Shown here piece by piece: positions 19,516 through 37,965 of a DNA stretch of 64,000 nt. Each line of letters opens with the position of its first letter. Position 1 is the first letter of the stretch. The DNA is taken from assembly GCA_005881575.1 (NCBI GenBank), contig VBCA01000005.1, positions 12,322-76,321 of the forward strand, in the 5' to 3' direction. A program made the position numbers and the translations under genes. The notes beneath the pieces were generated by a model that saw only the letters and a program-made list of their open reading frames with translations, did no database searches and was not told the DNA's origin. This DNA comes from Betaproteobacteria bacterium. Lineage in GTDB: Bacteria > Pseudomonadota > Gammaproteobacteria > Burkholderiales > SG8-39.

Positions 19516-21282
19516 TTACTTTCCCGATGCGGAAACGGCCCTCGCCATGACGAGCAAGGGTTCGACCGCGCTTCGATCCGCGGTGCGCGCTTGCTCGAGG
19601 ATCAGGATCGTCGCATTGACTCGGTGCGGAAACGTTTCCAGGGCTCGCGCGAGCAGACTGCGCGCTTTTTCCGCCTCCCCGCTGAGGGCTAGGAAGACCG
19701 CGCGTCGTGCCACCACCGTATTGGCGGGCCAGTAGCGGGCTACGCGCTCGCTCAGGGCCAGCTTCTCGGCAAGCTCGCTCCGGTCCAGCGGAGCGCCGAT
19801 CAATATCCATAGCTCCGCCAGGGGCGCCATGAGCCCGTGGGTCAGCTCGCGCATGGTTGCGGCGTCCTGTTGTGCTTGGGTGGCAGAGGTGAGCGTAACG
19901 GTTGTTCCGGTGATGCGGGTGACGTCGAGTCGCATGTAATCCCTGAGCATGATCGCCGAGGCGACGGAAAGCACGATGCAGACGGCACCCGCGCTAATCG
20001 CGCTCGCGCGCGCGACCGCCAGCGAGGGCCCCGCTCGCGCGCTTGCTCCTATCAAAAGCGCGGTGACGCCGAGGAAGTGTGCACTCCAGAACGGAAACTC
20101 GGTCAGCGAGTGGATCATTTCGATTCCAACCGCGGCAATGATCCACCACGAAGCGACCTCCCGCCCCGTCCAGTAACGCCGCGCGGCCTGCCACCCCCAG
20201 ACGCACAGACCGCCCAGTACCAGGAGCGTGCCCACCAGGCCGGTTTCGGCAAGGAGGTGCAGGGGAACATTGTGCGGCGAAGTCCAGACTTCACCGATTG
20301 TCGTGAGCGACGGATCAAGCCCGATCTCGAACGCGGCACCGGCGAACTCGCCGGTGCCGACGCCGCCGAAAGGGGCACTGAGAAATACGCGTAGCGCGAT
20401 CAGCCATACCTGCCATCGCGGCTCGCCGTGTTCGAGGCGATCGATTGCCCCTTCACCCGAGGGGCCGAGATGGAGTGCCGCGTTGAGCCACGGCACTGCA
20501 AAATGGGCTGCTAAGACTGCGCCCGCGATTCCGCAGGCAGCAATTTTCGGGCGCCACTTTTGGGCGCCTTCTTGAGTGCGCGCCGCTAGAAACCCGAGCG
20601 CCGCATACCATAGCGCGTAGAGCAGGGTGCCGCGCGAGCCGGACAGCGCGCCGCCCAGAACGAGCAGGGCCAGGGCCGGAAGTGCATACGCCGTCCGCAC
20701 TCGCTCGCGCAGCCACAGGAACAGGAGCGCGCCTTCCCCGAGCGCCAGGTAGTTGGCATAAAGATTCGCTTGGGCGATGTTTCCGTAGGCGCGGTTGCCG
20801 TGCAGCTCGGCGACGACATCCTCGAACAGCTTGGGTCGGCCATAGAACTGCATGACCCCCGCCAGCGAATTCGCAAGAGCGCCGGCCAGAAGAAACATGG
20901 CCAGTACCGTCGCCACGCGCGCGATACCGAGCTCAGCCGTGAGTTGTGCCCCGAGCCAAATCATCAGCGCGGCGTAGAGGACGTACAGCGCAGCGACCAC
21001 GGGCAATTGGGAATAGACGTGCCCGCCGCTCGCCGCCTGGGCGGCGAGAAACGCCGCGAAGACGATCAGCCATAGCGCCGGCACGGGCGAGGACACGAAG
21101 GATACGGCCGTGACACCTCGCCCGACGAGCAGGGTCAGCGCGGCTGCAATGCCCAGCGCTGCGGCCAGCCATCCGGGGAAAAAACTCAGGATGGGCTGCT
21201 GGTGATACGCCAGCAGGAACGGCAGCAGACACAGGCTGCCCGCGAGCAACAGGCTTATTGTTTGGCCCGAGCTTGTCTTCAC
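19516..21282 (-). CDS. PglL/TfpO-type O-antigen-ligase-family protein (predicted pilin O-oligosaccharyltransferase)
   Basis: 588 aa, polytopic. The N-terminus (LLPFLLAYHQQPILSFFPGWLA) resembles the PglL_A signature, the middle is Wzy_C-like, and the helical C-terminal domain resembles Wzy_C_2. It lies directly downstream of two pilin genes. GTG start. Confidence 0.7.
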   Translation of the reverse strand: MKTSSGQTISLLLAGSLCLLPFLLAYHQQPILSFFPGWLAAALGIAAALTLLVGRGVTAVSFVSSPVPALWLIVFAAFLAAQAASGGHVYSQLPVVAALYVLYAALMIWLGAQLTAELGIARVATVLAMFLLAGALANSLAGVMQFYGRPKLFEDVVAELHGNRAYGNIAQANLYANYLALGEGALLFLWLRERVRTAYALPALALLVLGGALSGSRGTLLYALWYAALGFLAARTQEGAQKWRPKIAACGIAGAVLAAHFAVPWLNAALHLGPSGEGAIDRLEHGEPRWQVWLIALRVFLSAPFGGVGTGEFAGAAFEIGLDPSLTTIGEVWTSPHNVPLHLLAETGLVGTLLVLGGLCVWGWQAARRYWTGREVASWWIIAAVGIEMIHSLTEFPFWSAHFLGVTALLIGASARAGPSLAVARASAISAGAVCIVLSVASAIMLRDYMRLDVTRITGTTVTLTSATQAQQDAATMRELTHGLMAPLAELWILIGAPLDRSELAEKLALSERVARYWPANTVVARRAVFLALSGEAEKARSLLARALETFPHRVNATILILEQARTADRSAVEPLLVMARAVSASGK

Positions 21283-21346: not shown

Positions 21347-22018
21347 TTAAAAAGCCTTGCAGACCAGGTACTGACTCACCCCGGTTTCCACATAGCCCGT
21401 GGCCGGGGTTGCGGCCAGGTCAGGATTCGCGGTGGTCTGCAGTTGCGCGCGCACCTGGCCGGTCGCCGAGTTGCTGTCGTCGATCTGCGAGTCTATCGCA
21501 ATCGCGACCTTGTCCGGTATATTCGAGCTGCATAGCGTCAGACCGGTGAAGCCCAGACCGACTGTCGGGACCACTGCGTTCTCCACGCCGACGATGCCTC
21601 CGGCCGCGTTCGGCGGATTCGTCGCGGCGCCGCTTCCCGTGGTCAAGCCCGCGACGAATCCGGCGATGCGCAAGTGTTGCCAGAACAAGTGGGATTCCTT
21701 CGTAAGGTCGACGTCATTGTACTTGCCTGCGATGACCCCGTTGCCGTCACCGCTTGCGGGAGCCTGGACGGTCCAGCGCGCGGTGGCATTCGGGTCGTCT
21801 CCGGGGAGGGCGCGGTAACGGTCCTGGTAGGAGGTCACGGCCACGGCGACCCCGTTGAAATCGTTGATCGCGTTTTTGATCTTGGCCTGGGTGATCATTT
21901 CCTGGCCCTTCAGGATGCCGCCCAGGAGCAGTCCGATGATGACGAGCACGATCGCGATTTCGACCAAGGTGAAACCGGCCTCGGTCGAATTTCTGTTGCT
22001 GAAAGCAGATGCGGTCAT
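21347..22018 (-). CDS. Type IV pilin-like protein, paralogue 1 (prepilin-type N-terminal cleavage/methylation domain)
   Basis: The sequence MTASAFSNRNSTEAG|FTLVEIAIVLVIIGLLLGG has G-1, F+1 and E+5. Two Cys residues (LCSSN..., YLVCKAF) could form a C-terminal disulfide loop. GGAGG lies 6 nt upstream of the ATG at 22018. Confidence 0.85.
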   Translation of the reverse strand: MTASAFSNRNSTEAGFTLVEIAIVLVIIGLLLGGILKGQEMITQAKIKNAINDFNGVAVAVTSYQDRYRALPGDDPNATARWTVQAPASGDGNGVIAGKYNDVDLTKESHLFWQHLRIAGFVAGLTTGSGAATNPPNAAGGIVGVENAVVPTVGLGFTGLTLCSSNIPDKVAIAIDSQIDDSNSATGQVRAQLQTTANPDLAATPATGYVETGVSQYLVCKAF

Positions 22019-22085
22019 AGGAGCCTCCAAAGCGCAGAAGTCTAGGTCAGTCGGGGGAAACGTGCACGAGCTGGTTGTTGAGCGG

Positions 22086-22781
22086 CTATAAGTTCTTGCA
22101 CAGCAGATACTGATTCACCCCGGTTTCCACGTAGGCCGTCGCCGCGCCTCCGGCGTCGCTAGCCGTAGGCGGATTCGCGGTGCCCTGGAGCTGCCCGCGG
22201 ATCTGGCCGGTCGCCGGGTTGCTGTCGTCCATCTGGCCGTCGACCGCGCTCGCCACCTTCTCCGGCAGGTTCGCGAAGCACACGATCAGGCTGGTGAAAC
22301 CCAGGCCGTTTGTGCCGGGCGCGCCCGACTCCACGCCGATCATGCCCCCGGCTGCATTCGTCGGCTGCGTCCCGCTTCCGGCTCCCGTGGTCAGGCCCGG
22401 GACGAATCCGGCGATGCGCAGATGCTGCCAGAACAGGTTGGATTCCGCTGCTGAGGTCGGGGCGCCCGCCCCTGGAAGGGCGTTGTAAAGGCCCGCGATG
22501 ATCCCGTTGCCGTTACCGCTTGCGGGATTCTGGACGGTCCAGCGTGTGGTGGCGTTCAAGTCGTCTCCCGGAATGGCGCGGTAGCGGTCCTGATAGGACG
22601 TCACGGCCACGGTGATGCCGTTGAAGTCGTTGACGATGTTCTTGATCTTGGCCTGGGTGATCATTTCCTGGCCCTTGAGCACGCCGCCCAAGAGCAGCCC
22701 GATGATCACGAGCACGATTGCGATCTCGACCAAAGTAAAACCCGCCTCGGTCGAATTCTTGCTGAAATTGGACAAACTCAT
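22086..22781 (-). CDS. Type IV pilin-like protein, paralogue 2
   Basis: It reads MSLSNFSKNSTEAG|FTLVEIAIVLVIIGLLLGG and is roughly 70% identical by eye to paralogue 1. The ATG at 22781 lies about 33 nt downstream of the predicted sigma-54 transcription start. Confidence 0.85.
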   Translation of the reverse strand: MSLSNFSKNSTEAGFTLVEIAIVLVIIGLLLGGVLKGQEMITQAKIKNIVNDFNGITVAVTSYQDRYRAIPGDDLNATTRWTVQNPASGNGNGIIAGLYNALPGAGAPTSAAESNLFWQHLRIAGFVPGLTTGAGSGTQPTNAAGGMIGVESGAPGTNGLGFTSLIVCFANLPEKVASAVDGQMDDSNPATGQIRGQLQGTANPPTASDAGGAATAYVETGVNQYLLCKNL

Positions 22782-22825
22782 GCAACCCCCAAAAATCAAA
22801 ACGGAGTAAAGATTCAACGAAACTC

Positions 22826-22840
22826 GCAAAATATGTGCCC
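22826..22840 (-). promoter_or_regulatory. Sigma-54 (-24/-12) promoter of the pilin genes
   Basis: The minus strand reads GGGCAC-atatt-TTGCG, compared with the consensus TGGCAC-N5-TTGCW. The GG/GC spacing is exact, and it lies 45-60 nt upstream of the pilin-2 ATG. Confidence 0.75.
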
Positions 22841-22934: not shown

Positions 22935-23657
22935 TTAGTTCTTCCCCGGGGTCTTTCCGATCCGCGCTTCCAGTTGTTTCAGGCGCTCATCCAGGAATCT
23001 CAGCTCGGCCGGGTCCTTCACTCTCCCGCTTTGGAGATACCCCCCGATGATGAGACGGGCGGTTTCCAGCTCGTTCATGTCTTCCAGGATGAAGATCTCC
23101 ATCTGCTTCGCCCAGAGGGGAACGTCGTCGGCGACGGCGTAGCGCTGGATCGCTCGAGCGTAGCGGAGTGCGAGCGGCAGATCATGGAGCCGGTGCTTGG
23201 CGATGGCGGTGGCATGGGCAAGCCAGGGCCAGCGACGATTGGGATCGAGCAGGAACTGCCGATAAACGAACTCGAGCATGCTGCGCTGCTTGGCCTCGAC
23301 GGGCACTTCGGCATACAGCCTGCTCGCGGCGAGGAGGGGGTATTGGCCTCGCGGGTCCAGATCCAGTATTCTCGCGAGCCAAGCTTCCAGCCGGCCATAA
23401 TCGAGATCGCGATAGGGGACCTTGCTGCCGGATTGATAGTCGAACGCCTGTAAGTACAGCATCAGTGCCTTGCCGAGCGCCACGGGATCCCCGAAGCTCG
23501 CGAGCCTGAGCGCGGCGATGCTCGGCGCGGGCGCCAAATCCTCTGCCGCCGCCCGGGGCGGCGGGGCGGTGGCCTTCAGCCCGATCTGCGCGGCGAGCCC
23601 CAGAGCGAACAGCACGAGAACGCCACGCGGCACTACTGCAATCGATCGCTGTGACAT
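22935..23657 (-). CDS. Hypothetical exported/membrane-anchored helical protein (no family recognised)
   Basis: 240 aa with an N-terminal hydrophobic segment (VLVLFALGLAAQIGL) followed by a helical-repeat-like sequence. It starts 3 nt after the permease gene, so it is probably co-transcribed. Confidence 0.6.
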   Translation of the reverse strand: MSQRSIAVVPRGVLVLFALGLAAQIGLKATAPPPRAAAEDLAPAPSIAALRLASFGDPVALGKALMLYLQAFDYQSGSKVPYRDLDYGRLEAWLARILDLDPRGQYPLLAASRLYAEVPVEAKQRSMLEFVYRQFLLDPNRRWPWLAHATAIAKHRLHDLPLALRYARAIQRYAVADDVPLWAKQMEIFILEDMNELETARLIIGGYLQSGRVKDPAELRFLDERLKQLEARIGKTPGKN

Positions 23658-23660
23658 CGT

Positions 23661-24425
23661 CTAAAAGTTCTTTCGGTACAAATCGAAAAGCGCCGCGGAA
23701 CAGATCAGCACGAGGTAGAGCGCGGTCTGGCCGACGACGGGGCCGAGAGTGCTGACGCTCGGCGCCGATCCCAGCAGCCAAGTGGTCTGCGTCATCGCGT
23801 CGAGCGCCGGCAGCAGGAGCGCGATCAGGTTCACAACGGCATTCACCGCGCGATCGGTGAGGGTAGGATCCTGCAGCGGTGCGCCGGCGATGATCTGCAT
23901 TGCCGCCATTGAACGCGACAGCAGGTAGAAGCCTGCAACGGCGGCAAACGCCGGGACCACTTGCGCGAAAGACACCACGCAAAACAGACTCATAGCCGTC
24001 ACGATCAACAATTCGCAGATGAGGGAAAGAGTCCAGAGGGCGAGTCCCTGGGAATTTGCGAACGGCACCAAAGGCAGCGCGCTGAGCAGCGCAAGGATAG
24101 CGGCGAGCATGGCGTAACCGGCAAACTTTCCGAAAAAATAGGCGGAACGCGGCGCCGGCAGGGAGAGCAGCAGCTCGGTGACCTTGTCGCTCAATTCCCT
24201 CACCGTGCTCGTGATCACGAACACGGCCACGATGAAGACGGCGGCGACCCTGAGCGGGGCGGCGAGCAATGCGGTCTGGATCTCTCGAGATTCGGTGATC
24301 GCCACTTGATTCAGAAATTGGGCGAGGCCGAACGCGATTACCACGACCACTACCGCAAGCCACAAGAGGCGGTTTCGAACCGCCTCGAGCAAAGTAGCTC
24401 TAGCCAGCGAAGCGACGATGGGCAT
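23661..24425 (-). CDS. ABC-2 type transporter permease-like membrane protein
   Basis: 254 aa with about 6 hydrophobic spans. The opening ARATLLEAVRNRLLWLAVVVVVIAF is typical of ABC-2/NosY-like permeases. There is no adjacent ATPase gene. Confidence 0.6.
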   Translation of the reverse strand: MPIVASLARATLLEAVRNRLLWLAVVVVVIAFGLAQFLNQVAITESREIQTALLAAPLRVAAVFIVAVFVITSTVRELSDKVTELLLSLPAPRSAYFFGKFAGYAMLAAILALLSALPLVPFANSQGLALWTLSLICELLIVTAMSLFCVVSFAQVVPAFAAVAGFYLLSRSMAAMQIIAGAPLQDPTLTDRAVNAVVNLIALLLPALDAMTQTTWLLGSAPSVSTLGPVVGQTALYLVLICSAALFDLYRKNF

Positions 24426-24466: not shown

Positions 24467-24482
24467 TGGCACAATACGTGCC
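24467..24482. promoter_or_regulatory. Palindromic sigma-54-type element in the divergent permease/kinase intergenic region
   Basis: The sequence TGGCAC-aatac-GTGCC reads as GG-N10-GC on both strands: plus TGGCACAATACGTGC, minus AGGCACGTATTGTGC. It lies 42 nt upstream of the permease ATG and about 140 nt upstream of the kinase ATG. Confidence 0.5.
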
Positions 24483-24620: not shown

Positions 24621-26357
24621 ATGACCCAGGGTATGGCGACGACTGCCGCGCTTCAGATTTCTCAGCTTTTCATCGCGAGGTCATGGCGAGCTCTTTTTGT
24701 CGTCATGCTGGTGTCCCTGCATCTTGCCGCGATGTGGGGTACTGAGGATTACTGGGCGCGCGGCTTGATGCTCGCGCACTTCGGGCTTTTCATCCTCTGG
24801 CAGCCCTTCATGCGTAGCGAGCATCGCCTGACCTCGGCGCAGGTTGCGGCGATCGCTGCGATTGCGTTGGGGACCCTCTATTTCCTCAACTGGTGGCTGC
24901 TCGCCCTCTGGGTCAGCGTTCTGGCGGGAATCGTGGGCGGCAAGGTGTTCCTCTTCCAGGCACGGTGGCTGCGGCGCTTCTATCTCGTGGTGTTGCTGTA
25001 TCTCGTCTCGCTGCTGCTCATTTGGATCGTCCCGAACACCTTTCGTGTGCCCCTGCCCAATGAGGTCGAATTGCTGGCGCAATACGGCTTGCCCGTGCTG
25101 TTCCTCGTGATGGTTGCGATTCCCGCCGAGACGGACTCCGCGGAAACTCCCCAGGTCGTCGATTTTTTCTATGCCGCGATGATCGTGCTGCTGCTGATCG
25201 CCCTTGCGCTGGGCAGCTTTGCCTTCATGACGGTGGGCAAGATCGACTACATCATGGCTCTTTCGTTCAGCATGCTGATCATAGCGGGCGTGCTGCTGCT
25301 ACTCTCCTTCGCCTGGAACCCGCGCGCCGGATTCAGCGGGCTTTCCGTATATTTCTCGCGCTATCTGCTGTCGATAGGGCTGCCGTTCGAGCGCTGGCTG
25401 TATTTCTTGGCCGAGCTGTCGCAGCTCGAGACCAAGCCCGAGCGCTTCATGAAAGAGGCCTGCGTCGGCCTCGCGCGCCTACCCTGGGTGTCCGGCGGCT
25501 TCTGGCACACGGCGGGTGAGTCGGGCGATTTCGGCAAGGTCTCCAAGAACTCCGTCGAGTTCACCAACCAGGAAATCCACTTGCGGGTTTTCACCAAGCT
25601 GGCGTTGAGCCCTTCGCTGGTCTGGCACTTCCAGCTGCTCGGACAGCTTCTCGGCGAGTTCTATGTCGCCAAGCAGCGCGAGCAGAAACTCCAGCAGCAG
25701 ACCTACGTGCAAGCCGTTCACGAGACCGGGGCGCGCATGACGCACGACGTGAAGAACCTGCTGCAGTCTCTGAACGTTCTGTGCGCGGCCGCCGAGCGCG
25801 ATACCGCATCCGATGCAGACGGCGAACTGTCCTCGCTCATGCGCCGACAGCTCCCGGCGATTACGCTGCGCTTGCAGCAGACGCTCGACAAGCTGCAAAA
25901 GCCCGACGCGAGTAACGGTCGTTTCATCAAGGCCGATACGTGGTGGGAGGGCCTGCAGCGCAGCTATGCCGGTCGTGGCGTCGAGTTTTCCCGCGAGGGG
26001 CAGGGGGACTCCGTGATGCTGCCGAAGGAGCTCTTCGACAGCGCGGGCGACAATCTGCTGCAGAATGCGCTGCGAAAGCGCAGACTCGATGAATCCGTCG
26101 CCGTGCGCGCGACCTTCCGCTGCAACGACACCATCGAGTTTTCCGTGTGCGACAGCGGCGCTCCGGTGGCCGCGGAAGTGCTGCGTGGGCTGATGAGGGG
26201 GCCGGTGCCTTCGGAAACCGGATTCGGCATCGGCCTGTACCAGACCAGCCGGCTCGCCGAAATCTCGGGATTCTCGCTGCAACTGCGAGACAACGAGAGT
26301 GGCCGGGTGTGCTTCAGCCTGCGGGGAGAAGTGCGCCGCGGCGCACGCGGGCAGTGA
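24621..26357 (+). CDS. Multi-pass membrane sensor histidine kinase (PilS/PrsK-like)
   Basis: 578 aa. The first ~300 aa contain many TM helices. It has an H-box (ARMTHDVKNLLQSL) and an HATPase_c domain (DNLLQNALRK..., G.GIGLYQ). Confidence 0.85.
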   Translation: MTQGMATTAALQISQLFIARSWRALFVVMLVSLHLAAMWGTEDYWARGLMLAHFGLFILWQPFMRSEHRLTSAQVAAIAAIALGTLYFLNWWLLALWVSVLAGIVGGKVFLFQARWLRRFYLVVLLYLVSLLLIWIVPNTFRVPLPNEVELLAQYGLPVLFLVMVAIPAETDSAETPQVVDFFYAAMIVLLLIALALGSFAFMTVGKIDYIMALSFSMLIIAGVLLLLSFAWNPRAGFSGLSVYFSRYLLSIGLPFERWLYFLAELSQLETKPERFMKEACVGLARLPWVSGGFWHTAGESGDFGKVSKNSVEFTNQEIHLRVFTKLALSPSLVWHFQLLGQLLGEFYVAKQREQKLQQQTYVQAVHETGARMTHDVKNLLQSLNVLCAAAERDTASDADGELSSLMRRQLPAITLRLQQTLDKLQKPDASNGRFIKADTWWEGLQRSYAGRGVEFSREGQGDSVMLPKELFDSAGDNLLQNALRKRRLDESVAVRATFRCNDTIEFSVCDSGAPVAAEVLRGLMRGPVPSETGFGIGLYQTSRLAEISGFSLQLRDNESGRVCFSLRGEVRRGARGQ

Positions 26358-26391: not shown

Positions 26392-27360
26392 TCAGGGCAG
26401 GCGCCCGGCAGCGACCATGCGGCTGATGAGCGCGCTGGAGGAAATCATGACCACGATGTCGTCGAATTCACAGGGCGGAGCCACGCTCTGCGGCGCTGGT
26501 GGGGGGGAAGGATCGACGCAACCCGCTGCGGAAGGCGTACGCGTTCGGCTGTAGAAGGCCCAGCTCGAGTAGCCCCCTGAGGGGGTGGCGGTTGTGTTGC
26601 CGTTGACATTGGCGGCTTCGTCGTTGCCGGTCGGTATGGGGTTAAGCCGCGTGCCGTTCGTCTGCCAGGCGCCGAAGCCGTTCTTGCCGTGCGAAATGAA
26701 TATCGCGGGCAAGGCCGAGCCCAAAGGAACGGCTGTCGTGGTCGAATCGCCTCGGGTGAAGACCGCGATGTCACCCAGCGAACACAGAGCGAACGACGAG
26801 AGCGCGGGGGCGGGTGAAAGTACGAAAGGCGCTACAAGCGGCGGAGCGGACGGAGGGCAGGTCGGATTTTGATCCGCGGGACTTTGACGAAAGGGGGCGA
26901 CCTGTGAAGGAAAAGTACCAGGAACGGCGTTTTGGCGCGATTGCCACGTGTTTAGACTAATTGCGTCCGCGAACGCAGGCGCTACACGATAGCTGAGCCG
27001 TCTCCCCCAAGCGTCAGTCTCAGAGACTCCCAGAGTTGTCCATGGCACTACGCCGAACACAATGTAGCAACGGTTGTTGTTGGGGTCCCACTGCTCGGCG
27101 CCAGCGCCAACCGGCGTAGCCCAAGTCGTGGTGTCAACCGTCCCCGCGGGCGTCCCGCCATTCGCCGGACACGGAAGGCGCCCGTTTGCCTGGGCGAATC
27201 CGATAATCGCATCCCTGATCGAATCCATACTGCGCTTAGTATCGGCCGAATTGCGCACGTCGATCTGGGTGGAGAGCGGAATCAAAGCGCCAGCGAGCAG
27301 CAAGGCGATGATCGCCAACGCCACCGCAAGCTCGACGAGCGAGAAACCCTTACTGCTCAT
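26392..27360 (-). CDS. Large minor (pseudo)pilin with prepilin-type N-terminal cleavage/methylation domain
   Basis: 322 aa. The sequence MSSKG|FSLVELAVALAIIALLLAG has G-1, F+1 and E+5. It is the last gene of the assembly operon. Confidence 0.8.
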   Translation of the reverse strand: MSSKGFSLVELAVALAIIALLLAGALIPLSTQIDVRNSADTKRSMDSIRDAIIGFAQANGRLPCPANGGTPAGTVDTTTWATPVGAGAEQWDPNNNRCYIVFGVVPWTTLGVSETDAWGRRLSYRVAPAFADAISLNTWQSRQNAVPGTFPSQVAPFRQSPADQNPTCPPSAPPLVAPFVLSPAPALSSFALCSLGDIAVFTRGDSTTTAVPLGSALPAIFISHGKNGFGAWQTNGTRLNPIPTGNDEAANVNGNTTATPSGGYSSWAFYSRTRTPSAAGCVDPSPPPAPQSVAPPCEFDDIVVMISSSALISRMVAAGRLP

Positions 27361-27370
27361 CGCGCTGGAT

Positions 27371-29098
27371 TCAGGGCGAAACGACCACGACCCGGTCGTT
27401 GATCGCAGTGGGGACGCCCGATCGGTGTTCGAAGATCAGGTCTGCCGGCGTGGCATTCTGCCCTTCAAGATAGTTCGCGAGGGTCCCCGGGCGGGTCTGG
27501 CCGTCCAGCGCGCGGCCTGCAAAGATCAGGATCACCTGCTTGTTGTTGTTTGGGGCCGGGAGATTGTTTACCGTCAGGCAGGTGGTTCCCGCAGTGCAGG
27601 GGGGGCTGGGGCTGGCACCGGGTAGGTAATTCTGAGAGACCGCGTAGTAACTCTGGCGATACCACTGGTTCGAAGTGAACCAGGTGATATTTGGATTGGT
27701 AGGACTTGCGTTGGTAAGGCGCGGCAAATAGGACGGCGCGGGGAGAGGAACGGTGATCGTGACCCTGCCGATGGTGTCCCGTGCATTCTGCAGCCGCCCG
27801 GTGTAGGTGACCACACCTCTTCCGTCCGCCCGCGCCGCAAAGCTCAGTGTGGGCGGGTTGCGCGGACTAGTCGCGCTAAAGCCCTCACTCCATTGGCCGA
27901 ATGACGTGTTGACGAGCGGAGTGCCGTTCCGGTTGACCATCACTATAGTCGAATCGTTAGGGGCAACCATGGACGGGGTATCGGCAAACGCCAAGCTCGC
28001 GTTCGCCAGGAGAATCTCAAGCTTGATGTCAGGGCGAGCGTCGCTGTGGGCGATGTCGCCGCAGCAATAGTCAACCGTACAGGTCACGGTAAGCGGCGGC
28101 GGAGGCGAACTTATCGAGCAGATCGCAGGATTGGGGGAGATAGTATCTGGGGGAGACTTTATCGCCACATCGTAACTCCCCGTGCCCGACCCGACGATAT
28201 CCGTGACGGTAGCGCTCGCCCAAGTGAGCCACGCCGGATCGTTCGTCACGGGCAGCAAGCCCATCGTCTGATTTGACGCGCCCTGATAGGCGGACTGCGC
28301 GGTAGGCGGCGCGACAAACGGCATGGCAAATGGGTAGGCGCCCCATTTGCCGAAATAGTCCAGGAGGAGGGGTTTGACGTCGCGCTCGATCCGCGCGGCG
28401 ACGACCGGTTCGACCGCTGCCATCAGGTCGGCCTGTGTGATCACGACCAGGCGATCATTCGCCGTGTCAGAGGGCGTGGCAACGGTGCTGAACCCATAGT
28501 CGGGTGTACTCGGCGTGACTCCTTCTAGATAGGCAGCGGGATCGTTGTGCTGGGCTATCCGGTCTTGCCCCGAAAACGCCGCGCCGGGAGCAATAACGAC
28601 GGCGACCACATTGCTTGCAGGCGCTGCGCCAGTGACAGTGAGCAAGCCGGGAGTATCGCTATTGATGATGTTGGCCGCATTCTTGTAAAAGTTGGACGAA
28701 ACCGCGTACCATAAACGCTCTCCGCTTGCGTCTCTCAGATCTTCGCCGCCTATCGTCGCCCACGGCAAGCGACCGACGCGATCGGCGGCGGCAGAGCAGA
28801 TTCCCGGCGACGCACCGGTGTCGTTGTTGTCAGGGCAAGGCAGCCCACCGGGTTGGTTTGTCGTTTGCCCCTTGTACAACTGCCACTGCTCGTTGGCGGC
28901 GTACGCAATCAGCGCCGCCTTCGCTTTCCTCAGCGCGCTCATGCTGCGATCCTCGCGCTCGTTGGAGTTCCCGGCGCTGGTGAGGTTGAGGGCGCTGGCT
29001 ATAAGGAAGGCGCTGATCAAAGCGGCCAGGGCGAGGAGCGCGATCAACGCAAAGCCGCGCCGACCCGACGCCCTCTTACGCCATGCCCGGATCCTCAC
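27371..29098 (-). CDS. Large pilus-associated protein with an E5-less pseudopilin-like N-terminus (GspK/PilX-like; possible tip or adhesin subunit)
   Basis: 575 aa. The sequence RRG|FALIALLALAALISAFLIA has G/F but Ala at +5. It shares a Cys-containing module with the 322-aa pseudopilin. The GTG start overlaps the upstream stop (GTGA). Confidence 0.6.
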   Translation of the reverse strand: MRIRAWRKRASGRRGFALIALLALAALISAFLIASALNLTSAGNSNEREDRSMSALRKAKAALIAYAANEQWQLYKGQTTNQPGGLPCPDNNDTGASPGICSAAADRVGRLPWATIGGEDLRDASGERLWYAVSSNFYKNAANIINSDTPGLLTVTGAAPASNVVAVVIAPGAAFSGQDRIAQHNDPAAYLEGVTPSTPDYGFSTVATPSDTANDRLVVITQADLMAAVEPVVAARIERDVKPLLLDYFGKWGAYPFAMPFVAPPTAQSAYQGASNQTMGLLPVTNDPAWLTWASATVTDIVGSGTGSYDVAIKSPPDTISPNPAICSISSPPPPLTVTCTVDYCCGDIAHSDARPDIKLEILLANASLAFADTPSMVAPNDSTIVMVNRNGTPLVNTSFGQWSEGFSATSPRNPPTLSFAARADGRGVVTYTGRLQNARDTIGRVTITVPLPAPSYLPRLTNASPTNPNITWFTSNQWYRQSYYAVSQNYLPGASPSPPCTAGTTCLTVNNLPAPNNNKQVILIFAGRALDGQTRPGTLANYLEGQNATPADLIFEHRSGVPTAINDRVVVVSP

Positions 29099-29544
29099 GG
29101 CTTGCGCTCGCGTTCCTCGGAAGGAGTCGTGATTCTGCCGCTTGCGGCGGGATCTCTGATCTCGCCGCGGACCTTGTCGAGCGTCTGCCCGATCTTGAGG
29201 GTGACCGACGGCGCGCCCTCGCCGCCGGGCAGGGTCACCCGGGCCGGATCGAGGGGTTTCCTCGCGCTCTCCTGTGGAACCCCGTTGATCCAGGTCGTGC
29301 TCCGGCCCGAGGAGCGCGACACTTGGCCGTTGACCGTGACGGTGCTCTCGACGACGACCGCGGTTTCCTGGATGTTGGCCTGGCGGCGGCGGTCGAGGTC
29401 CTGGCGCTCCTGCTCGGTGAAGAAGAGGCGCCCGAGATTCTGCTGGGCGGCGACCTGCCCCGTCGCGACTCCGAGCAGAAATGTCACCGCGAAAAGGCGT
29501 CTCGCGAGTTTCACGTGCCTTCCGATGGTTAGTTTGCGTTGCAT
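29095..29544 (-). CDS. Small secreted protein of the pilus operon (MshK/PilP position), function unassigned
   Basis: 149 aa from the ATG at 29544, with a signal peptide (LFAVTFLLGVATGQVAAQQ). It lies between the PilO-like and pseudopilin genes. Confidence 0.5.
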   Translation of the reverse strand: MQRKLTIGRHVKLARRLFAVTFLLGVATGQVAAQQNLGRLFFTEQERQDLDRRRQANIQETAVVVESTVTVNGQVSRSSGRSTTWINGVPQESARKPLDPARVTLPGGEGAPSVTLKIGQTLDKVRGEIRDPAASGRITTPSEERERKP

Positions 29545-29552
29545 GCGTCGGC

Positions 29553-30167
29553 TCAAGCGGGCTTGAGCCCTCTGACCGAGATCAGGTCGACCTGGCACTC
29601 GGCCCGAAGGCGTGGTCGCAGCGTCGTCGTGCCCGGTGCCGCCCCGCGCTCTATCCGCGTCACGGTGCAATTCCGCACGGACACGTGCGCCTTGATGCCT
29701 GCCTGCAGGTCTGCCAGGAAATTCAGGAGATCCCCCTCGTGCAGCAGCAGCATGTCGAGTTTCAGCCTGCTCACCACAAAGTCGGCGCCGCCGGTTGGTA
29801 CCAGCCCGGGATAGTCGAGCGGTCTTTGGGCTTCGAAGTTGTACCTGATCTCGAAGAGCTTGCGATCGTTTTTGATCCTGGCGATCGATTCGATCCAGTC
29901 GAGGCGGCTCTGCTCGCCCACGACACCGCGTTGGCGCATCTGCTCGTAGTACACGAGATCATCGCGGATCTCGCGCTCTTCCTCCGAGACTCTTAGGACC
30001 CGTTCCTGGGCCGCCACGCGGGTCAGTCTGGTTGCGTCCTGCGCCGTTCTCGCCTCGTCCAGGTAGTATCCGCTGGCGATCAGGCTGGCTGCACCCAGCA
30101 CGAGCAGTATGATCGCCATAGCGAGCGGCATGCGCAGGCGCTTGAGGTCGTCGCGGGTGACGTTCAT
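29553..30167 (-). CDS. PilO/MshJ-like bitopic pilus assembly protein
   Basis: 204 aa with a single N-terminal TM (PLAMAIILLVLGAASLIASGYYL), a coiled-coil-like stretch and a C-terminal globular part. Its ATG overlaps the stop of the upstream PilM/N-like gene (ATGA). The assignment rests on architecture and position. Confidence 0.5.
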   Translation of the reverse strand: MNVTRDDLKRLRMPLAMAIILLVLGAASLIASGYYLDEARTAQDATRLTRVAAQERVLRVSEEEREIRDDLVYYEQMRQRGVVGEQSRLDWIESIARIKNDRKLFEIRYNFEAQRPLDYPGLVPTGGADFVVSRLKLDMLLLHEGDLLNFLADLQAGIKAHVSVRNCTVTRIERGAAPGTTTLRPRLRAECQVDLISVRGLKPA

Positions 30168-31738
30168 GTGCCGCGCCGCTTGACGACTACGACTGAGAAC
30201 TGCGGCACTTCCTCTCTCCTCGCCGCACCGATATCGCCGGCGAGGCTTTTTTCCGCGTTGATGTCGAACGGCAGCTGCGTGCGCGTCACTTCGGTGCCGG
30301 GCCGCCTGCGCAGCGCCTCGGTAAACTGGTTCACCAGCGCGGTCACGGCGCGGAAGTCCGAGGCCTGCTGCACGACGAGCTTGCCCGCAATCTCGGCGGT
30401 TTGGGTCTGAAACTCGGCGCCCGCGGCCTGTGCCTGCCCTGCCGGCGGGGCGGAAGGGGTCTTCGACGCCTCGCGGCCGGCTGCCGATTTCGCGCCGGCG
30501 CCGAACTCCCAATCGATCCTGTCGATTTCAATCTGGGGTAGAGCCGTTACCGCTTCGCTGATCTCGTTGAACATCCCGCCGGGCGAACCGCTCTGCCGCA
30601 GCAGCGCCCGGTAGTTCTTGACGACCGCTTTCAGGGTTTCGCTGGAGATCGGCGTCTTCGGGAAGCGCGTTTGCAGTCGAGCGTATTCCACGGAGGCGCG
30701 GGCTTCCTGTACGCGGTCATTGTGAGCCTGCTCGGAGACATGAAGGACATCAAGAAGTCTCACCGCCGAAACGAGCAGGCAAAAGGCGAACACCGCCGCC
30801 CCGGTGGCAAGCAGGGCCACGCGCGCGCGCCACAAATGATAGGAGCGCCGCAGGCGCTCGTCGGCATACTGTTCGCGGGACGGGTACGCGGCGAGGACGT
30901 GGAGAAACAGCCCCTCGGCGAGCGTCTCGGCGGGCACCGATTTGAGGCCCAGGCCGCTGCCCACCTTGTCGAGGTCGTGAACATGGAACTGCAGCCGGGC
31001 GGAATTGACGCAGGCCGCGTCGTAGAGCGCCTTGTGCCCGCTCGGCGCAAGCACGAGCACGTCGAGCGCAGGCGCCTCGCGCGGCAGAATACGGCTGTTG
31101 ACGAGATACTGCTGGATCCGCAGGGACTCGGCGGCGCAATCCTGGGCGATCACGCGGGGATCGGAGGAGTCCACGCGGCCGAGGCGCGAGAAGCGGATTC
31201 GGCCGTTTTCGATGTAGCTTTGCCGCAGTCCGGCGTGCTGCCGGCTCACCATCAGGTATCGCCCACCCTTGAAACCGAGTCGCTTCCCCATCTGAGCCGC
31301 GACGAGGGCCACTGAAAATACGCCGACCACGCAGGCATCGTTCGAGCGCAAGGCCTCGAGCCAGGGCTGGAACAGCTGCGTGTTGGTAAACGACATGTAG
31401 AGAATCCGTTCCTCGCGCCGGCCCGCGTGGGTCTCCGACCCGAGCGAAAGCGGGAGGGCGAGCGACGCGTCGCGGTAACGCTGGGCGAGCTTGCGCGCAA
31501 GCAGCGCGCGCCGGTCCGCGCCGCGCACGTAAGGTATGTTCTCCTGAAAGAAGTCTTCCTCGACCATGTCGGCGAGCAAGTAGAAAAGACTTCCCGGGGC
31601 GCCGGCCGCGTATCTGGAGAACTCGGCGACGCCTTTCTCGTTCATGTCGAAAACGCCTTCCCTGTGCAGCTCGCCCTTGGTCCATAGATAGGCGGTGACT
31701 CTCTGGGAAGTGAGGTAACAGAGACGTTTGCTCGGCAC
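30164..31738 (-). CDS. MshI-like (PilM/PilN-type fusion) pilus assembly protein
   Basis: 524 aa. It has a ~300-aa cytoplasmic domain, one TM (VALLATGAAVFAFCLLVSAV) and a ~200-aa periplasmic part. It lies immediately downstream of the GspF homologue. Confidence 0.5.
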   Translation of the reverse strand: MPSKRLCYLTSQRVTAYLWTKGELHREGVFDMNEKGVAEFSRYAAGAPGSLFYLLADMVEEDFFQENIPYVRGADRRALLARKLAQRYRDASLALPLSLGSETHAGRREERILYMSFTNTQLFQPWLEALRSNDACVVGVFSVALVAAQMGKRLGFKGGRYLMVSRQHAGLRQSYIENGRIRFSRLGRVDSSDPRVIAQDCAAESLRIQQYLVNSRILPREAPALDVLVLAPSGHKALYDAACVNSARLQFHVHDLDKVGSGLGLKSVPAETLAEGLFLHVLAAYPSREQYADERLRRSYHLWRARVALLATGAAVFAFCLLVSAVRLLDVLHVSEQAHNDRVQEARASVEYARLQTRFPKTPISSETLKAVVKNYRALLRQSGSPGGMFNEISEAVTALPQIEIDRIDWEFGAGAKSAAGREASKTPSAPPAGQAQAAGAEFQTQTAEIAGKLVVQQASDFRAVTALVNQFTEALRRRPGTEVTRTQLPFDINAEKSLAGDIGAARREEVPQFSVVVVKRRGT

Positions 31739-31743
31739 GGCGT

Positions 31744-32949
31744 CTATACCTTGATCTTGCTGATGACGTCGTAAATCGGCCCGAGAACGGAGAGCATCAC
31801 CCAGCCGAGAATGACGCCGAGGACTACCGTCAGAGCCGGCTCGATGATCACTTGAATCTTACCGATCGATTCGCGCACTTCTCGGTTGTAGAAATAGGAC
31901 ACATTGAGCAGCGCCTTGTCGAGTGCGCCGGTCGCCTCGCCCACCCGGAGCATTCTCACGACGAGCGGCGGGAAAAGCCCCACCTCCTGGAACGCTGCGG
32001 TGACGTTCTTGCCCTCGCCGATCTGCTGTCCCGCGAGTCTCAAGCCCTCCTGGATGACCATGTTGCCGGTGATTTCCTCGGAGCTGCGGATGGCATCGAG
32101 GATGGTGATCCCGGAGGAGTACATGAGAGCGAAGATGCTGGCGAAGCGAGACAGGATGATCTTGCGCATGATCTCGCCCGCCACCGGGAGAGCGAGCTTG
32201 AAGCGATCGACCTGATAACGCACCAAGGGGTTCGCCCGAGCAGCCAGCTTGACGCCGACGAACAGGATCGCGGGGGCAGCCAGGAGAGCCCACCAGTAGC
32301 CTACGAAAAACGCCGAGACCTCGATCAAGACGCGCGTCTGCAGAGGGATCTGCTGCCCCATGTTCTTGATGAAGGTGACCATCTGCGGCACGAGGTAGAT
32401 CATCAGGAAGAAAGTCACCAGGATCACGATCGAACCGACGAACGCCGGGTAGAGGATGAGCTTCTTCATGTGCTCGGCCAGCTCGTCTTCCCATTTCAGG
32501 TTCTCGACGAGGCTTTTCAGCACGTCGGCGAGCCTTCCCGTGTCCTCACCGGCGCGGACGAGGCTCGTAAAAACCGGGTTGAAGATCTGCGGATACTGGG
32601 CGAGGCTCTGCGACAGCCGCAGGCCGCCTTGGATACTCTCGATGACTCCCGACATGACTTCGCGAAATCGGGCATTTTCGATGCTGTCGCGAAGGTCGAT
32701 CAGCGATTCGACGAGCGGTACCCCGGCCGCGATGAGCTGCTCCATGTGGAAGCAGAAGTTGATGAGCTCCGCGCGCTTGATTTCGCCCGAGCGAAGGAGG
32801 CTTCCGCCGTAACGAGTCGGCCCGCCCCGCACCAGGTCCAGCCCCATGCGCTTCAGACGCAGCTCGAGATCGACCAGATTGATCGCCTCGATCTGGCCGA
32901 GCATCGTCTTTCCCCGGGTATCTACGGCCTTGTAGGCAAAGAGTGCCAT
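31744..32949 (-). CDS. mshG: Type II secretion system F family platform protein (MshG/PilC-like)
   Basis: 401 aa with duplicated T2SSF domains and 3 TM regions (e.g. LILYPAFVGSIVILVTFFLMIYLVP, and the C-terminus EPALTVVLGVILGWVMLSVLGPIY). Confidence 0.85.
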   Translation of the reverse strand: MALFAYKAVDTRGKTMLGQIEAINLVDLELRLKRMGLDLVRGGPTRYGGSLLRSGEIKRAELINFCFHMEQLIAAGVPLVESLIDLRDSIENARFREVMSGVIESIQGGLRLSQSLAQYPQIFNPVFTSLVRAGEDTGRLADVLKSLVENLKWEDELAEHMKKLILYPAFVGSIVILVTFFLMIYLVPQMVTFIKNMGQQIPLQTRVLIEVSAFFVGYWWALLAAPAILFVGVKLAARANPLVRYQVDRFKLALPVAGEIMRKIILSRFASIFALMYSSGITILDAIRSSEEITGNMVIQEGLRLAGQQIGEGKNVTAAFQEVGLFPPLVVRMLRVGEATGALDKALLNVSYFYNREVRESIGKIQVIIEPALTVVLGVILGWVMLSVLGPIYDVISKIKV

Positions 32950-32982: not shown

Positions 32983-34710
32983 TTACATCCGGTCGGTGAG
33001 GTCGACCACGCGCATCAGCTCATCGAGCGCGGTCGACCCGTCGAGGACCCGGCGAACGCCGTCGTCGGCCAGCGTGCGAAAGCCCCTCGCCAAGGCCGAC
33101 TTCTGCAATTCCCGGCCGGTGGCGCGGTGCGCGATCAGCTCGTCGAGTTCACCGTCCATCTTCAGGATCTCGATGATGGCCATGCGACCCCGATAGCCCT
33201 GATACTCGCATTGGTCGCAGCCGACCGCGCGGTACAGGGTCGGTGGACGATCGGCCCGCGCTCCCACCATGCCGCACTCGCCAGGGTTCGCCTGATGAGC
33301 CTGCTTGCAATGCTTGCACAATTTGCGGACCAGGCGCTGCGCGACGATGCCGATGATGTTGCCGGCGAGGACGTCCGGGACGATGCCGATGTCGAGAAGC
33401 CGGGGAATCGCGCCGGCCGCCGAGTTGGTGTGGAGCGTCGAATAGACCTGATGTCCGGTCATCGCCGCGCGGAACGCCATGGTGGCCGTGTCCTCGTCGC
33501 GAATCTCGCCGACCAGGATCACATCGGGGTCCTGCCGCATGAGAGAACGGATGCCGTTGCCGAAATCCATCTTGGCGGCTTCGTTGATCGAGGTCTGCCG
33601 GATCAGCGTCATGGGATATTCGACCGGATCCTCCAGCGTCATGATGTTGAGGCCGTCGTTATTGATGTGATTGAGCACCGAGTAGAGCGTCGTCGTCTTG
33701 CCGCTGCCGGTGGGACCTGTGACCAGGATGATGCCTTCGGGCCGCGCGATCATTTTCTTGAGAAGCTGAAGCTGGGCCGCTTCGAGTCCCAGTCCGTCGA
33801 GCGGAACGATCCCTTTCTGCCGGTCGAGAATGCGCAGCACGATGTTCTCGCCGTGCGTGGTCGCTTGCGACGAGACGCGGAAATCGACCGCGCGGCCCGT
33901 TAGCATCAGCGAGATGCGCCCGTCCTGTGGGGCGCGTGTTTCGGCGATGTTCATCTTCGACATCACCTTGATGCGCACGGCCATCGCCGGCCAATACGTC
34001 TTGTGGAGGGACCTTATCTGGCGCAGCACCCCGTCGATGCGATAGCGGATGCGCAGAAAACTCTGCTCCGGCTCGAAGTGAATATCGGAGGCGCCCCGCT
34101 CGACGGCGTCCGCGAGGAGCGCCGAAATGAGGCGCACGACCGGTTGCGAATAGGCGTCGCCGGACGCCTGGAGGCTCTGGTAATCGATCTCGCCGGTCTC
34201 GATCTCGTGCAGGATCCCGTCGATCGAAAAATCGTGGCCGTAGTACTGGTCGATAGCCCGGCCGATCTCGCCCTCGCCAGCGAGCCGCATCTCGAGCGCG
34301 AACTCCCCGCGCAGCTGCGCCCGCACCTGGTCCAGCGCCACGATGTTGTTCGTGTCGGCAATCGCGATGATGAGCTTGCGCGCCTCGCGGTCGAGCGCGA
34401 CCGGGAAAATGGTGTGTCGCTTGGAGAATTCGCGCGGCACGAGCTTCAGGGCCATCGAGTCGACGACGATCTGCGTGAGGTCGACGCTCTGCAGGCCGAG
34501 TTTTTCGGACAAGGCGTCGCGCAGCGTGGCTTCGGACACGAAGCCCAGATTTACGAGGAGCTTTCCGACGGGCTGATGGGTCTTGAGCTGCTCGAGCAGC
34601 GCGATCCGCAGCTGATCCTCGGTGAGGATCCCCTGCGAGATCAAGATCTGCCCGATATGGCGCTTGGCCTGCGGCGAAATCGCCTGAGCGCTGAGGCGCG
34701 GGGAATTCAT
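32983..34710 (-). CDS. mshE: GspE/PilB-family assembly ATPase with an MshEN-type N-terminal domain
   Basis: 575 aa with Walker A GPTGSGKTT, Asp/His boxes, Walker B and a tetracysteine motif (C..C...C..C: CKHCKQ...GCDQCEYQGY). The N-terminus carries two MshEN-like 24-residue motifs. Confidence 0.9.
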   Translation of the reverse strand: MNSPRLSAQAISPQAKRHIGQILISQGILTEDQLRIALLEQLKTHQPVGKLLVNLGFVSEATLRDALSEKLGLQSVDLTQIVVDSMALKLVPREFSKRHTIFPVALDREARKLIIAIADTNNIVALDQVRAQLRGEFALEMRLAGEGEIGRAIDQYYGHDFSIDGILHEIETGEIDYQSLQASGDAYSQPVVRLISALLADAVERGASDIHFEPEQSFLRIRYRIDGVLRQIRSLHKTYWPAMAVRIKVMSKMNIAETRAPQDGRISLMLTGRAVDFRVSSQATTHGENIVLRILDRQKGIVPLDGLGLEAAQLQLLKKMIARPEGIILVTGPTGSGKTTTLYSVLNHINNDGLNIMTLEDPVEYPMTLIRQTSINEAAKMDFGNGIRSLMRQDPDVILVGEIRDEDTATMAFRAAMTGHQVYSTLHTNSAAGAIPRLLDIGIVPDVLAGNIIGIVAQRLVRKLCKHCKQAHQANPGECGMVGARADRPPTLYRAVGCDQCEYQGYRGRMAIIEILKMDGELDELIAHRATGRELQKSALARGFRTLADDGVRRVLDGSTALDELMRVVDLTDRM

Positions 34711-37855: not shown

Positions 37856-37965
37856 TTTTCCGTGGAAGTATAACAATACCACGTAACAAACTGATTTAAC
37901 AAACCAAAAGAACCACAGCGCCCCTCCGATTGGACCTTCGGCGGCCCGCGCAAACCGGGCGATTG

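Follow-up and report, generated by a model that had tools for sequence, protein, structure and literature searches.

The window analysed here is a stretch of 64,000 nucleotides (64 kb) from contig VBCA01000005.1 of the Betaproteobacteria bacterium assembly GCA_005881575.1. An operon for a type IV filament machinery ends there with two adjacent genes encoding pilin-like proteins of 575 and 322 amino acids (aa), named P575 and P322 below. Together, they probably form the complete minor-pilin set, and thereby the initiation or tip complex, of a type IV pilus of uncultured soil Betaproteobacteria, resembling the mannose-sensitive haemagglutinin (MSHA) pilus and controlled by cyclic di-GMP (c-di-GMP), with P575 as the apical subunit. 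Both proteins displayed pilin-type N-termini and paralogous heads, and P575 harbored an internal duplication; the two genes were found paired in related loci, in a context of filament machinery genes, and their products diverged fast. No paper on such loci in Betaproteobacteria was found in the literature.

Pilin-type N-termini and paralogous heads

Both open reading frames (ORFs), both N-termini and both shared segments quoted in a preliminary description of this DNA were present in the sequence as it had stated (Table 1). Identical 575- and 322-aa products emanated from independent gene calls on 22 metagenome contigs, in each case with genes of 524, 204 and 149 aa ahead of them. The GTG start of P575 overlaps the stop codon of the upstream 149-aa gene (as GTGA) and P322 starts 10 nt past the end of P575. 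The operon indeed ends with this pair. The gene that comes next encodes a convergent histidine kinase, and no terminator-like site was found after the P322 gene.

The N-terminus of P322 (MSSKG/FSLVE; slashes mark predicted cleavage sites) is canonical for prepilins, as had been proposed, and passed the thresholds of Pfam N_methyl (27.9 bits) and TIGR02532; beyond such N-terminal models, P322 matched no Pfam or NCBIfam family. A class III signal peptide, with a basic leader, a glycine and about 20 hydrophobic residues, was recognised in P322 (MSSKG/FSLVELAVALAIIALLLAGAL) as well as in P575 (...KRASGRRG/FALIALLALAALISAFLIASAL), where it was kept in 59 homologues. In these homologues the start of the mature protein (...GRRG/FALIA in P575) follows the conserved pattern (Q/E)RG/FA(L/M)IA, Gly-1 and Phe+1 being nearly invariant. 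The glutamate at position 5 (Glu5), present in P322 as the invariant E10, is absent from P575; the alanine noticed at this position in the larger protein was displayed by 59 out of 59 homologues. P575 matched neither Pfam N_methyl nor any Pfam or NCBIfam family. Homologues numbered 919 for P575 and 936 for P322, and six cysteines were invariant in the P322 family. The remainder of P575 proved to be enriched, as described, in Pro (10.5%), Thr (9.8%) and Asn (6.6%). The N_methyl and TIGR02532 matches of P322, the conserved N-terminus of P575 and the machinery context uphold the pilin-like nature first ascribed to the two proteins, and support their assignment, as judged from sequence, to the pilin-type components of a type IV filament machinery.

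The similarity between the two proteins, initially noticed as a shared LPCP...PW segment, was well above chance. BLASTP of the window pair gave an E-value of 0.006 and comparison of the two family profiles 2.7e-9. With the hydrophobic helix removed, hhalign aligned 73 columns of the two families at E 1.9e-9 (probability 96.3%). The invariant pattern common to both families reads G..PCP...G..P(W/F)..G....D..G....Y.....F, with a second cysteine in the loop, and the shared segment represents real homology by these profile comparisons. Nor is the similarity limited to the quoted segment. Locus L020 encodes short versions of the two proteins (226 aa for one, about 376 aa from the cleavage site for the other), and BLASTP aligned them over the whole head domain (66-216 vs 70-213, E 4e-9). 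Because this pair aligns across the entire head, the N-terminal half of P575 is, by sequence alignment, a paralogue of the entire P322; the L020 short forms are the one pair that argues for homology of the whole heads. The C-terminal part of P322 gave an end-to-end, in-register and non-significant alignment (E 0.08-0.17) with either of the two repeats of P575 described below.

A helix-less profile of the shared module was searched against 1.84 billion representative proteins and retrieved 6,470 clusters with E-values of 1e-3 or less, and 1,357 when the limit was set at 1e-10, with the match nearly always 40-150 residues from the N-terminus. Among the top 147 relatives, 75 displayed Glu5 (median length 263 aa) and 57 another residue at this position (median 412 aa). 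The GspG model TIGR01710 was matched by 76 out of 137 module relatives and Pfam T2SSG by seven out of 137. One relative, P0334, passed the T2SSG threshold (24.3 vs 21 bits) over residues 37-123, which span GRLPCP...LPW...DPWGNRFTY. Since relatives match TIGR01710 and P0334 passes T2SSG over the module, the module appears to be a diverged GspG/PulG head motif, in which nGrYP...DPWG.pY.Y would have become nGrLPCP...DaWGrR.sY.V, one transitive step away. This replaces the first reading of the module as a distinct new unit. With GspG/PulG the two proteins share a helix, followed by 'nG.(Y/L)P' and by '(P/A)WG...Y.(Y/V)' strands; they differ by an added pair of loop cysteines, by their size (575 and 322 vs about 140 aa) and by being minor rather than major subunits. 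Direct comparisons were less telling: TIGR01710 aligned with P322 at E 0.0077 over the helix only, and the helix-less modules, compared by hhalign with single Escherichia coli K-12 GspG to GspK sequences, aligned best and in register with the DPWGNDY of GspG at E 0.2-0.5, which was not counted as evidence. Several members of both families carry the COG label 'PulG' given by the Joint Genome Institute (JGI).

The superfamily sharing this module has no Pfam or NCBIfam model of its own. A very large unmodelled superfamily of heads, GspG-derived as far as sequence profiles tell and occurring in Glu5/non-Glu5 pairs, is new. It also points to an annotation gap, as the LPCP...PW...DAWG head, with about 6,500 clusters, is now labelled 'hypothetical' or generically 'PulG'.

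Three Glu5-type relatives, P0242 (631 aa), P0243 (751 aa) and P0269 (568 aa; Magnetococcales, MBF0419945.1), displayed three LPCP...PW...DAWG module matches per chain. They resemble multi-headed pilins and at least one of them comes from outside Betaproteobacteria. The gene for P0269 had no recognisable pilus machinery within 8 kb.

Layout of P575

The AlphaFold (AF2) model of P575 reached a mean predicted local distance difference test score (pLDDT) of 82.7 and a predicted template modelling score (pTM) of 0.79. It successively displayed a helix (aa 11-75), the LPCP/PW loop, strands (130-221), a second helix (222-252), a beta-rich stretch and further strands up to the C-terminus. The first and last groups of strands are copies of each other: aa 130-222 and 484-575 were aligned by hhalign over 88 columns with 34% identity (probability 97.5%, E 8e-12), while a control with reversed order gave E 0.59. 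Five strands were predicted in each copy, following the common patterns (W/Y)YAVS, LTV, VxxVIxxG, F.. and NDRxVVx. Residues N567, D568, R569, V571 and P575 at the C-terminus were invariant. The repeat could not be extended to the preceding regions (aa 40-129 vs 222-483 gave no signal).

Between the two copies, the region around the second helix was well conserved (mean identity 79% for aa 223-262). The middle domain that follows was the least conserved part of the protein, with a mean identity of 52% vs 67-79% elsewhere. It varied from 175 to 247 aa among close homologues, gave way to a linker of about 60 aa in the homologue from L020 and was absent from tblastn matches at many loci. Some relatives carried other beta-domains at its position, such as E1_FCCH. 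The roughly 450 residues that had been left unrecognised and taken for one large exposed domain thus resolve into a helix, a variable insert of about 210 aa and the second copy of the beta-module. P575 would accordingly be built as helix, head 1, helix, variable insert and second copy of the head beta-module. A K-like subunit whose C-terminal part duplicates its own beta-module is, on these alignments, new.

Structure searches added little. Foldseek of the whole P575 chain against PDB and BFVD returned miscellaneous beta-sandwiches (best E 7e-3, template modelling score below 0.15) and no pilin match, a whole-chain search in which single-domain matches may be missed. Hidden Markov model (HMM) searches of PDB sequences with both families and with the helix-less module yielded nothing beyond noise and matches to N-terminal helices (Thermus PilA5, geopilin, MshA). 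The AlphaFold model of P322, built from 55 close homologues, had a pLDDT of 42.8 and was not used for fold searches. In line with the preliminary description, profile searches with both proteins and Foldseek with P575 placed neither protein in a characterised minor-pilin family.

The duplication would give P575 two pilin-like heads, each made of a helix and a five-stranded module. It is possible, though doubtful, that these and the head of P322 constitute a two-gene, three-head initiation complex in place of the trimer of PilI, PilJ and PilK, which is supposed to be universal. It is just as tentatively proposed that the second P575 head of such a complex carries a giant variable loop at the canonical helix-to-sheet loop position. 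If true, the three-head complex would be a new architectural route to licensing filament assembly, present in thousands of uncharacterised loci.

Apparently minimal forms of the two proteins (274 and 163 aa) at locus L045 were rejected, because the genes of this contig are broken up and the start of the 274-aa product lies within repeat 1; small forms read from contigs of this sort are not reliable. This long contig (ERZ25039531 contig_18092) carries the same locus with T2SSE and T2SSF products of 396 and 228 aa, the fragments being probably due to assembly frameshifts.

Machinery, pairing and place in the filament

Read 5' to 3' on the minus strand, the machinery operon comprises genes for an AAA ATPase with a SPOR domain, a secretin, a tetratricopeptide repeat (TPR) protein, an ATPase with an MshEN domain, a platform protein, the three proteins of 524, 204 and 149 aa, P575 and P322. 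By its domain matches, it is an MSHA-like machinery. With the MSHA system of Vibrio cholerae (mshIJKLMNEGF / mshBACDOPQ) it shares an MshL-type secretin, an MshE with MshEN domain and MshG-, MshM- and MshN-like proteins, in a different gene order; the 524-, 204- and 149-aa genes, by position and size, may encode alignment-complex proteins (MshI/J/K-like, or PilM/N-, PilO- and MshK-like) of a kind missed by present models. Judged by gene count and protein size, not by direct comparison with V. cholerae MshO/P sequences, the MshB/C/D/O/P set and a large MshQ-like adhesin of about 1,200 aa are both missing from the window locus, and their place is taken by two unrelated pilin-like genes. On its flanks the locus has genes for a response regulator of the sigma-54 type and for a PrsK-like kinase. 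A six-frame scan of the window recovered two paralogous major-pilin candidates (Table 1) as the only prepilin-type genes besides P575 and P322, in agreement with the preliminary description. An MSHA-like machinery that, apparently and by gene content, makes do with two minor-pilin genes rather than four to six is also new.

This gene content also bears on another view of the locus, namely a device resembling the type II secretion system (T2SS). The pair would then tip a short pseudopilus, by which a substrate would be pushed or gated through the MshL-type secretin. The GspG-related heads, the resemblance of the P575 N-terminus to GspK, the lack of any retraction ATPase match in the locus and the ExeA-like ATPase with SPOR domain, a T2SS-associated type, would all suit such a device. 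It is nevertheless quite unlikely. The secretin passed the MshL model, if barely (TIGR02519, 251.2 bits vs a cut-off of 250.2), and not that of GspD (178 vs 351); the assembly ATPase has the c-di-GMP domain of the MshE type; the major pilins measure about 210 aa, not about 140; they adjoin a PglL-type gene, as expected for exposed glycosylated pili; and no GspC/L/M or GspH/I/J matches were found in the locus.

Relatives of the pair were gathered from 40 genomic loci, all but one from metagenome-assembled genomes (MAGs) and mostly labelled Betaproteobacteria or Burkholderiales, some labels being different or evidently wrong. They include Nitrosomonadales, Gallionella, Rhodocyclaceae and Accumulibacter bins. 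The sole cultured carrier, Viridibacterium curvum JCM 18715 (L039), opens an experimental route. The whole arrangement was syntenic across related loci, and the P575-type and P322-type genes were adjacent in at least 30 of the 40 loci, several others ending at a contig edge. A scan of 19 loci found one large non-Glu5 gene (364-612 aa), one Glu5 gene (199-316 aa), one or two major pilins and nothing else of prepilin type; its pattern was strict and caught a partial set at some distant loci. Short P322 forms, of 199-240 aa, belong to L018, L020, L037 and L039. No minor-pilin set of I/J/H type was found in the window or in the 19 scanned loci. Distant non-Glu5 homologues displayed K-type leaders such as QRGAALLVLL.

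Comparison with the closely related loci L006 and L010 revealed how fast the pair evolves. Identities to the window reached 98% for MshE, 97% for MshG, 96-97% for the kinase and 92-94% for the 524- and 204-aa proteins, vs 58-60% for P575 and 59-87% for P322. The major pilins of L006 were 71-79% identical to those of the window, and the divergence of P575 was spread across its whole periplasmic part. This is the pattern expected of exposed filament components and not of membrane assembly factors, and thus favours, on sequence identities, a surface-exposed position of the pair; exposure is not evidence of binding. It counts against P575 being an unprocessed and unpolymerised bitopic assembly factor of the inner membrane and periplasm, with an N-terminus that merely looks like that of a prepilin. 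For such a factor one could cite the missing N_methyl match, the missing Glu5 and the large, multi-domain periplasmic part without structural match. It is however very improbable. P575 diverges much more quickly than the machinery proteins do, a neighbouring bona fide prepilin has a head homologous to the one in P575, Gly-1 and Phe+1 are kept across the P575 family and distant homologues have textbook GspK-like leaders (QRGAALLVLL).

The absence of Glu5 is a hallmark of GspK/PilX-type subunits, which have nothing above them in the filament. An apical position is accordingly proposed for P575 because it lacks Glu5. It would further fit the K-type layout because it combines this absence with a middle domain that is optional and a C-terminal strand, NDRVVVVSP, that is invariant. 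Like GspK, PilX, PilK and MshP, P575 displays a short basic QRG leader and a hydrophobic stretch without Glu at +5. Like GspK-type subunits, it is oversized through an insertion in the pilin fold, is encoded by a machinery-linked gene and has a conserved C-terminal strand. The label 'GspK/PilX-type' given to it at first holds for the leader, the helix and the missing Glu5, and fails for the head. Against a family of 38 GspK sequences, hhalign aligned 23 N-terminal residues of P575 only (QRGFALIALL/QRGVALiiVL, E 4e-4). The GspK profile met the P575 and P322 families over the helix only, and among E. coli GspG to GspK the best hhalign match of the P575 family was GspK. Membership of P575 in the GspK family was rejected, as the alignment stops after the helix and T2SSK is not matched. 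The two also differ in architecture. The P575 insert is beta-rich rather than the alpha-domain of GspK, the C-terminal 90 aa or so duplicate its own beta-module, and the locus offers no I/J partners and a single Glu5 pilin.

In prevailing models, a minor-pilin trimer of I, J and K starts type IV filaments, often with a PilY1-type adhesin (PMC13533445). The apical K-type subunit lacks Glu5 and is recognised by the I/J dimer; the last strand of its sheet is provided in trans by PilY1, PilC or MshQ, or in cis by the K subunit itself, and K-type subunits in systems without tip adhesin often carry a large insertion (PMC13533445). No gene for a PilY1/PilC-type beta-propeller tip adhesin was found at the locus, and the P575 family had no Pfam match to PilY1 or to Neisseria PilC. 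The closest parallel in architecture is CpaL (TadG) of the Caulobacter Tad system, a protein of about 600 aa in which deletion of the middle region is tolerated (PMC13533445). Like P575, CpaL has an N-terminal domain resembling minor pilins, a large middle region, without which CpaL still assembles tips, and a conserved extreme C-terminus, which in CpaL comes back to the pilin domain (PMC13533445), and its system, like this locus, has few minor pilins. The Tad filament is of type IVc (T4c), in contrast to the MSHA-like type IVa (T4a) filament expected here. The two proteins displayed no detectable sequence relation and P575 no Tad- or vWA-type Pfam match. CpaL works with two small minor pilins (CpaJ and CpaK), whereas the present locus offers P575 one candidate partner.

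A dual-pilin protein, PilJ from Clostridioides difficile, combines an N-terminal pilin domain with a second pilin-like domain devoid of transmembrane helix (PMC9556784). The likeness of P575 to it, in a presumed order of helix, head, helix and head, stems from the internal repeat and the predicted secondary structure, not from coordinates; the two are unrelated in sequence, and PilJ has Glu5 and is thought to be located in the shaft. After this example, P575 and P322 could be low-abundance minor pilins decorating the shaft with extra domains. The canonical Glu5 N-terminus of P322 would allow insertion anywhere in the fibre, the duplicated P575 recalls the dual-pilin fold of PilJ with its second domain projecting from the shaft (PMC9556784) and fast divergence fits any exposed position. 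Shaft decoration is still unlikely: Glu5 is absent from the whole P575 family, a helical shaft would hardly accommodate a head of more than 500 aa and the pair belongs to the machinery operon, translationally coupled and apart from the major pilin genes.

An initiation complex placed at the tip is therefore retained here as the probable role of the pair. Both proteins would enter the inner membrane through their class III signal peptides and be cut after the conserved glycine by a prepilin peptidase encoded outside the window. Their periplasmic heads, paralogous and of a diverged GspG type, would probably be stabilised by disulfides between the conserved cysteine pairs. P575, devoid of Glu5, would take the apical position and P322, with Glu5, would dock beneath it, as in GspK-, PilX- and CpaL-type systems. 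The two would nucleate polymerisation of one or two major pilins by the MshE/MshG motor and then remain at the tip. The insert of about 210 aa, which is optional and evolves fast, would lie at the distal end and could carry binding specificity; adhesion by this insert, raised as a question in the preliminary description, is speculative.

Several observations weigh against this proposal. By profile-profile comparison, the P575 head shows no similarity to GspK; Pfam T2SSK was unmatched in 59 P575 members at E up to 5; and no GspK or XcpX structure was present among the best 50 Foldseek matches listed for P575. T2SSG was matched neither by P575 and P322 nor by their close families, and the proposed link to GspG depends on one transitive step. 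The P322 model is unreliable. No prepilin peptidase gene was recognised among the annotated genes of the window. Finally, canonical initiation complexes need three core minor pilins, I, J and K. This locus has just two such genes, and others could be encoded beyond the window.

All of this stays within the paradigm of type IV filaments, and minor pilins frequently go unannotated. The two-gene system nonetheless offers a natural test of which parts of an initiation complex are indispensable. Abundant Betaproteobacteria of soil and wastewater, including relatives in Accumulibacter, Gallionella and Nitrosomonadales, may owe their specificity for surfaces or partners to the fast-evolving insert, presumed to lie at the tip.

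Neighbourhood and minor observations

Table 1. Coordinates of P575, P322 and associated features in the 64-kb window
Feature	Position	Strand	Basis and remarks
P575, 575-aa pilin-like protein without Glu5	27371..29098	-	ORF call, GTG start; candidate apical subunit
P575 aa 1-45, basic leader to Gly, Phe+1, Ala+5, hydrophobic helix	28964..29098	-	Class III signal-peptide-like
P575 aa 84-137, shared LPCP...PW...DASGERLWYAVS segment	28688..28849	-	hhalign; helix-to-sheet loop and first head strand
P575 aa 130-222, beta-module copy 1	28433..28711	-	Predicted strands WYAVS, LLTVT, VVAVVIAP, GFST, RLVVIT (AF2)
P575 aa 222-252, long helix between head 1 and insert	28343..28435	-	Predicted (AF2, pLDDT about 90)
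P575 aa 263-472, variable beta-rich middle domain (about 210 aa)	27683..28312	-	Optional in family
P575 aa 484-575, beta-module copy 2	27374..27649	-	Ends in invariant NDRVVVVSP strand; predicted strand E569-574 (AF2)
P322, 322-aa prepilin-type protein with Glu5	26392..27360	-	ORF call, ATG start; candidate partner subunit
P322 aa 60-130, shared GRLPCP...VVPW...DAWGRRLSYRVAPAF segment	26971..27183	-	BLASTP, hhalign, invariant columns
Three unannotated genes (524, 204 and 149 aa)	29095..31738	-	No Pfam/NCBIfam match; order kept in related loci
GspF/MshG-like platform protein	31744-32949	-	Pfam T2SSF
MshE-like assembly ATPase with MshEN c-di-GMP-binding domain	32983-34710	-	T2SSE; MshEN E 9.6e-14; NF053729 58.5 bits vs 38
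TPR protein (MshN-like)	34719-36050	-	TPR matches
MshL-type secretin	36047 to about 37960, start not fixed	-	TIGR02519 and Pfam Secretin
ExeA/MshM-like AAA ATPase with SPOR domain	37966-39384	-	Pfam AAA_22 and SPOR
Sigma-54 NtrC-family, PrsR-like response regulator	39413-40837		Upstream of operon
Multi-pass histidine kinase, weakly PrsK-like, convergent	24621..26357	+	TIGR02916 46 bits, cut-off 300
Two paralogous major-pilin candidates, G/FTLVE	21347-22030, 22086-22829	-	N_methyl, motif scans; about 209 and 218 aa from cleavage site
588-aa gene, PglL/Wzy_C-type	19516-21282	-	Wzy_C_2, Wzy_C, weak PglL_A matches

The longest secretin ORF (36047-38260) overlaps the upstream ATPase gene by about 300 nt and its first 130 residues or so look non-genic; the true start is probably near 37.9 kb. 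The N-terminal part of the secretin displayed 33-68% identity between loci, well below the rest of the machinery.

Beyond the kinase lie, successively, genes for an ABC-2-like permease, a 240-aa protein of no known type, the two major-pilin candidates and the PglL/Wzy_C-type protein. The kinase (24621-26357, plus strand) and the two genes at 22935-24425 (minus strand) form a trio that most related loci have kept in the interval separating the operon from the pilin genes. It comprises the kinase, an ABC-2-type permease-like protein without nearby ATPase partner and a secreted or anchored protein of 240 aa.

Sites resembling sigma-54 -24/-12 promoters were located directly 5' of the first pilin gene (22826-22840, minus strand; GGGCAC-N5-TTTGC) and of the kinase gene (24467-24481, plus strand; TGGCAC-N5-CGTGC). 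Counted genome-wide, two occurrences of the pattern vs 3.65 expected are not significant and only the positions of the sites are suggestive.

Extra short P575 paralogues, limited to the N-terminal 240 aa or so, were found at L021 (3496-4197), L025 (12118-12822), L026 and L027 (8-709). They lie downstream of the P322 homologue and immediately before the kinase. Several related loci, among them L012 (7601-8908) and L018 (12408-13775), harbored a gene for a membrane-bound class III nucleotidyl cyclase between the P322 homologue and the kinase, recognised by eye (...FADIVNFT...IKTIGDAYMVAGG...) and lacking from the window.

The 588-aa gene adjoins the major pilins downstream. Its matches suggest an O-oligosaccharyltransferase-like product of the PglL/PilO type, and hence pilins that may be O-glycosylated. 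At many related loci this gene accompanies the pilin genes, in some cases inverted.

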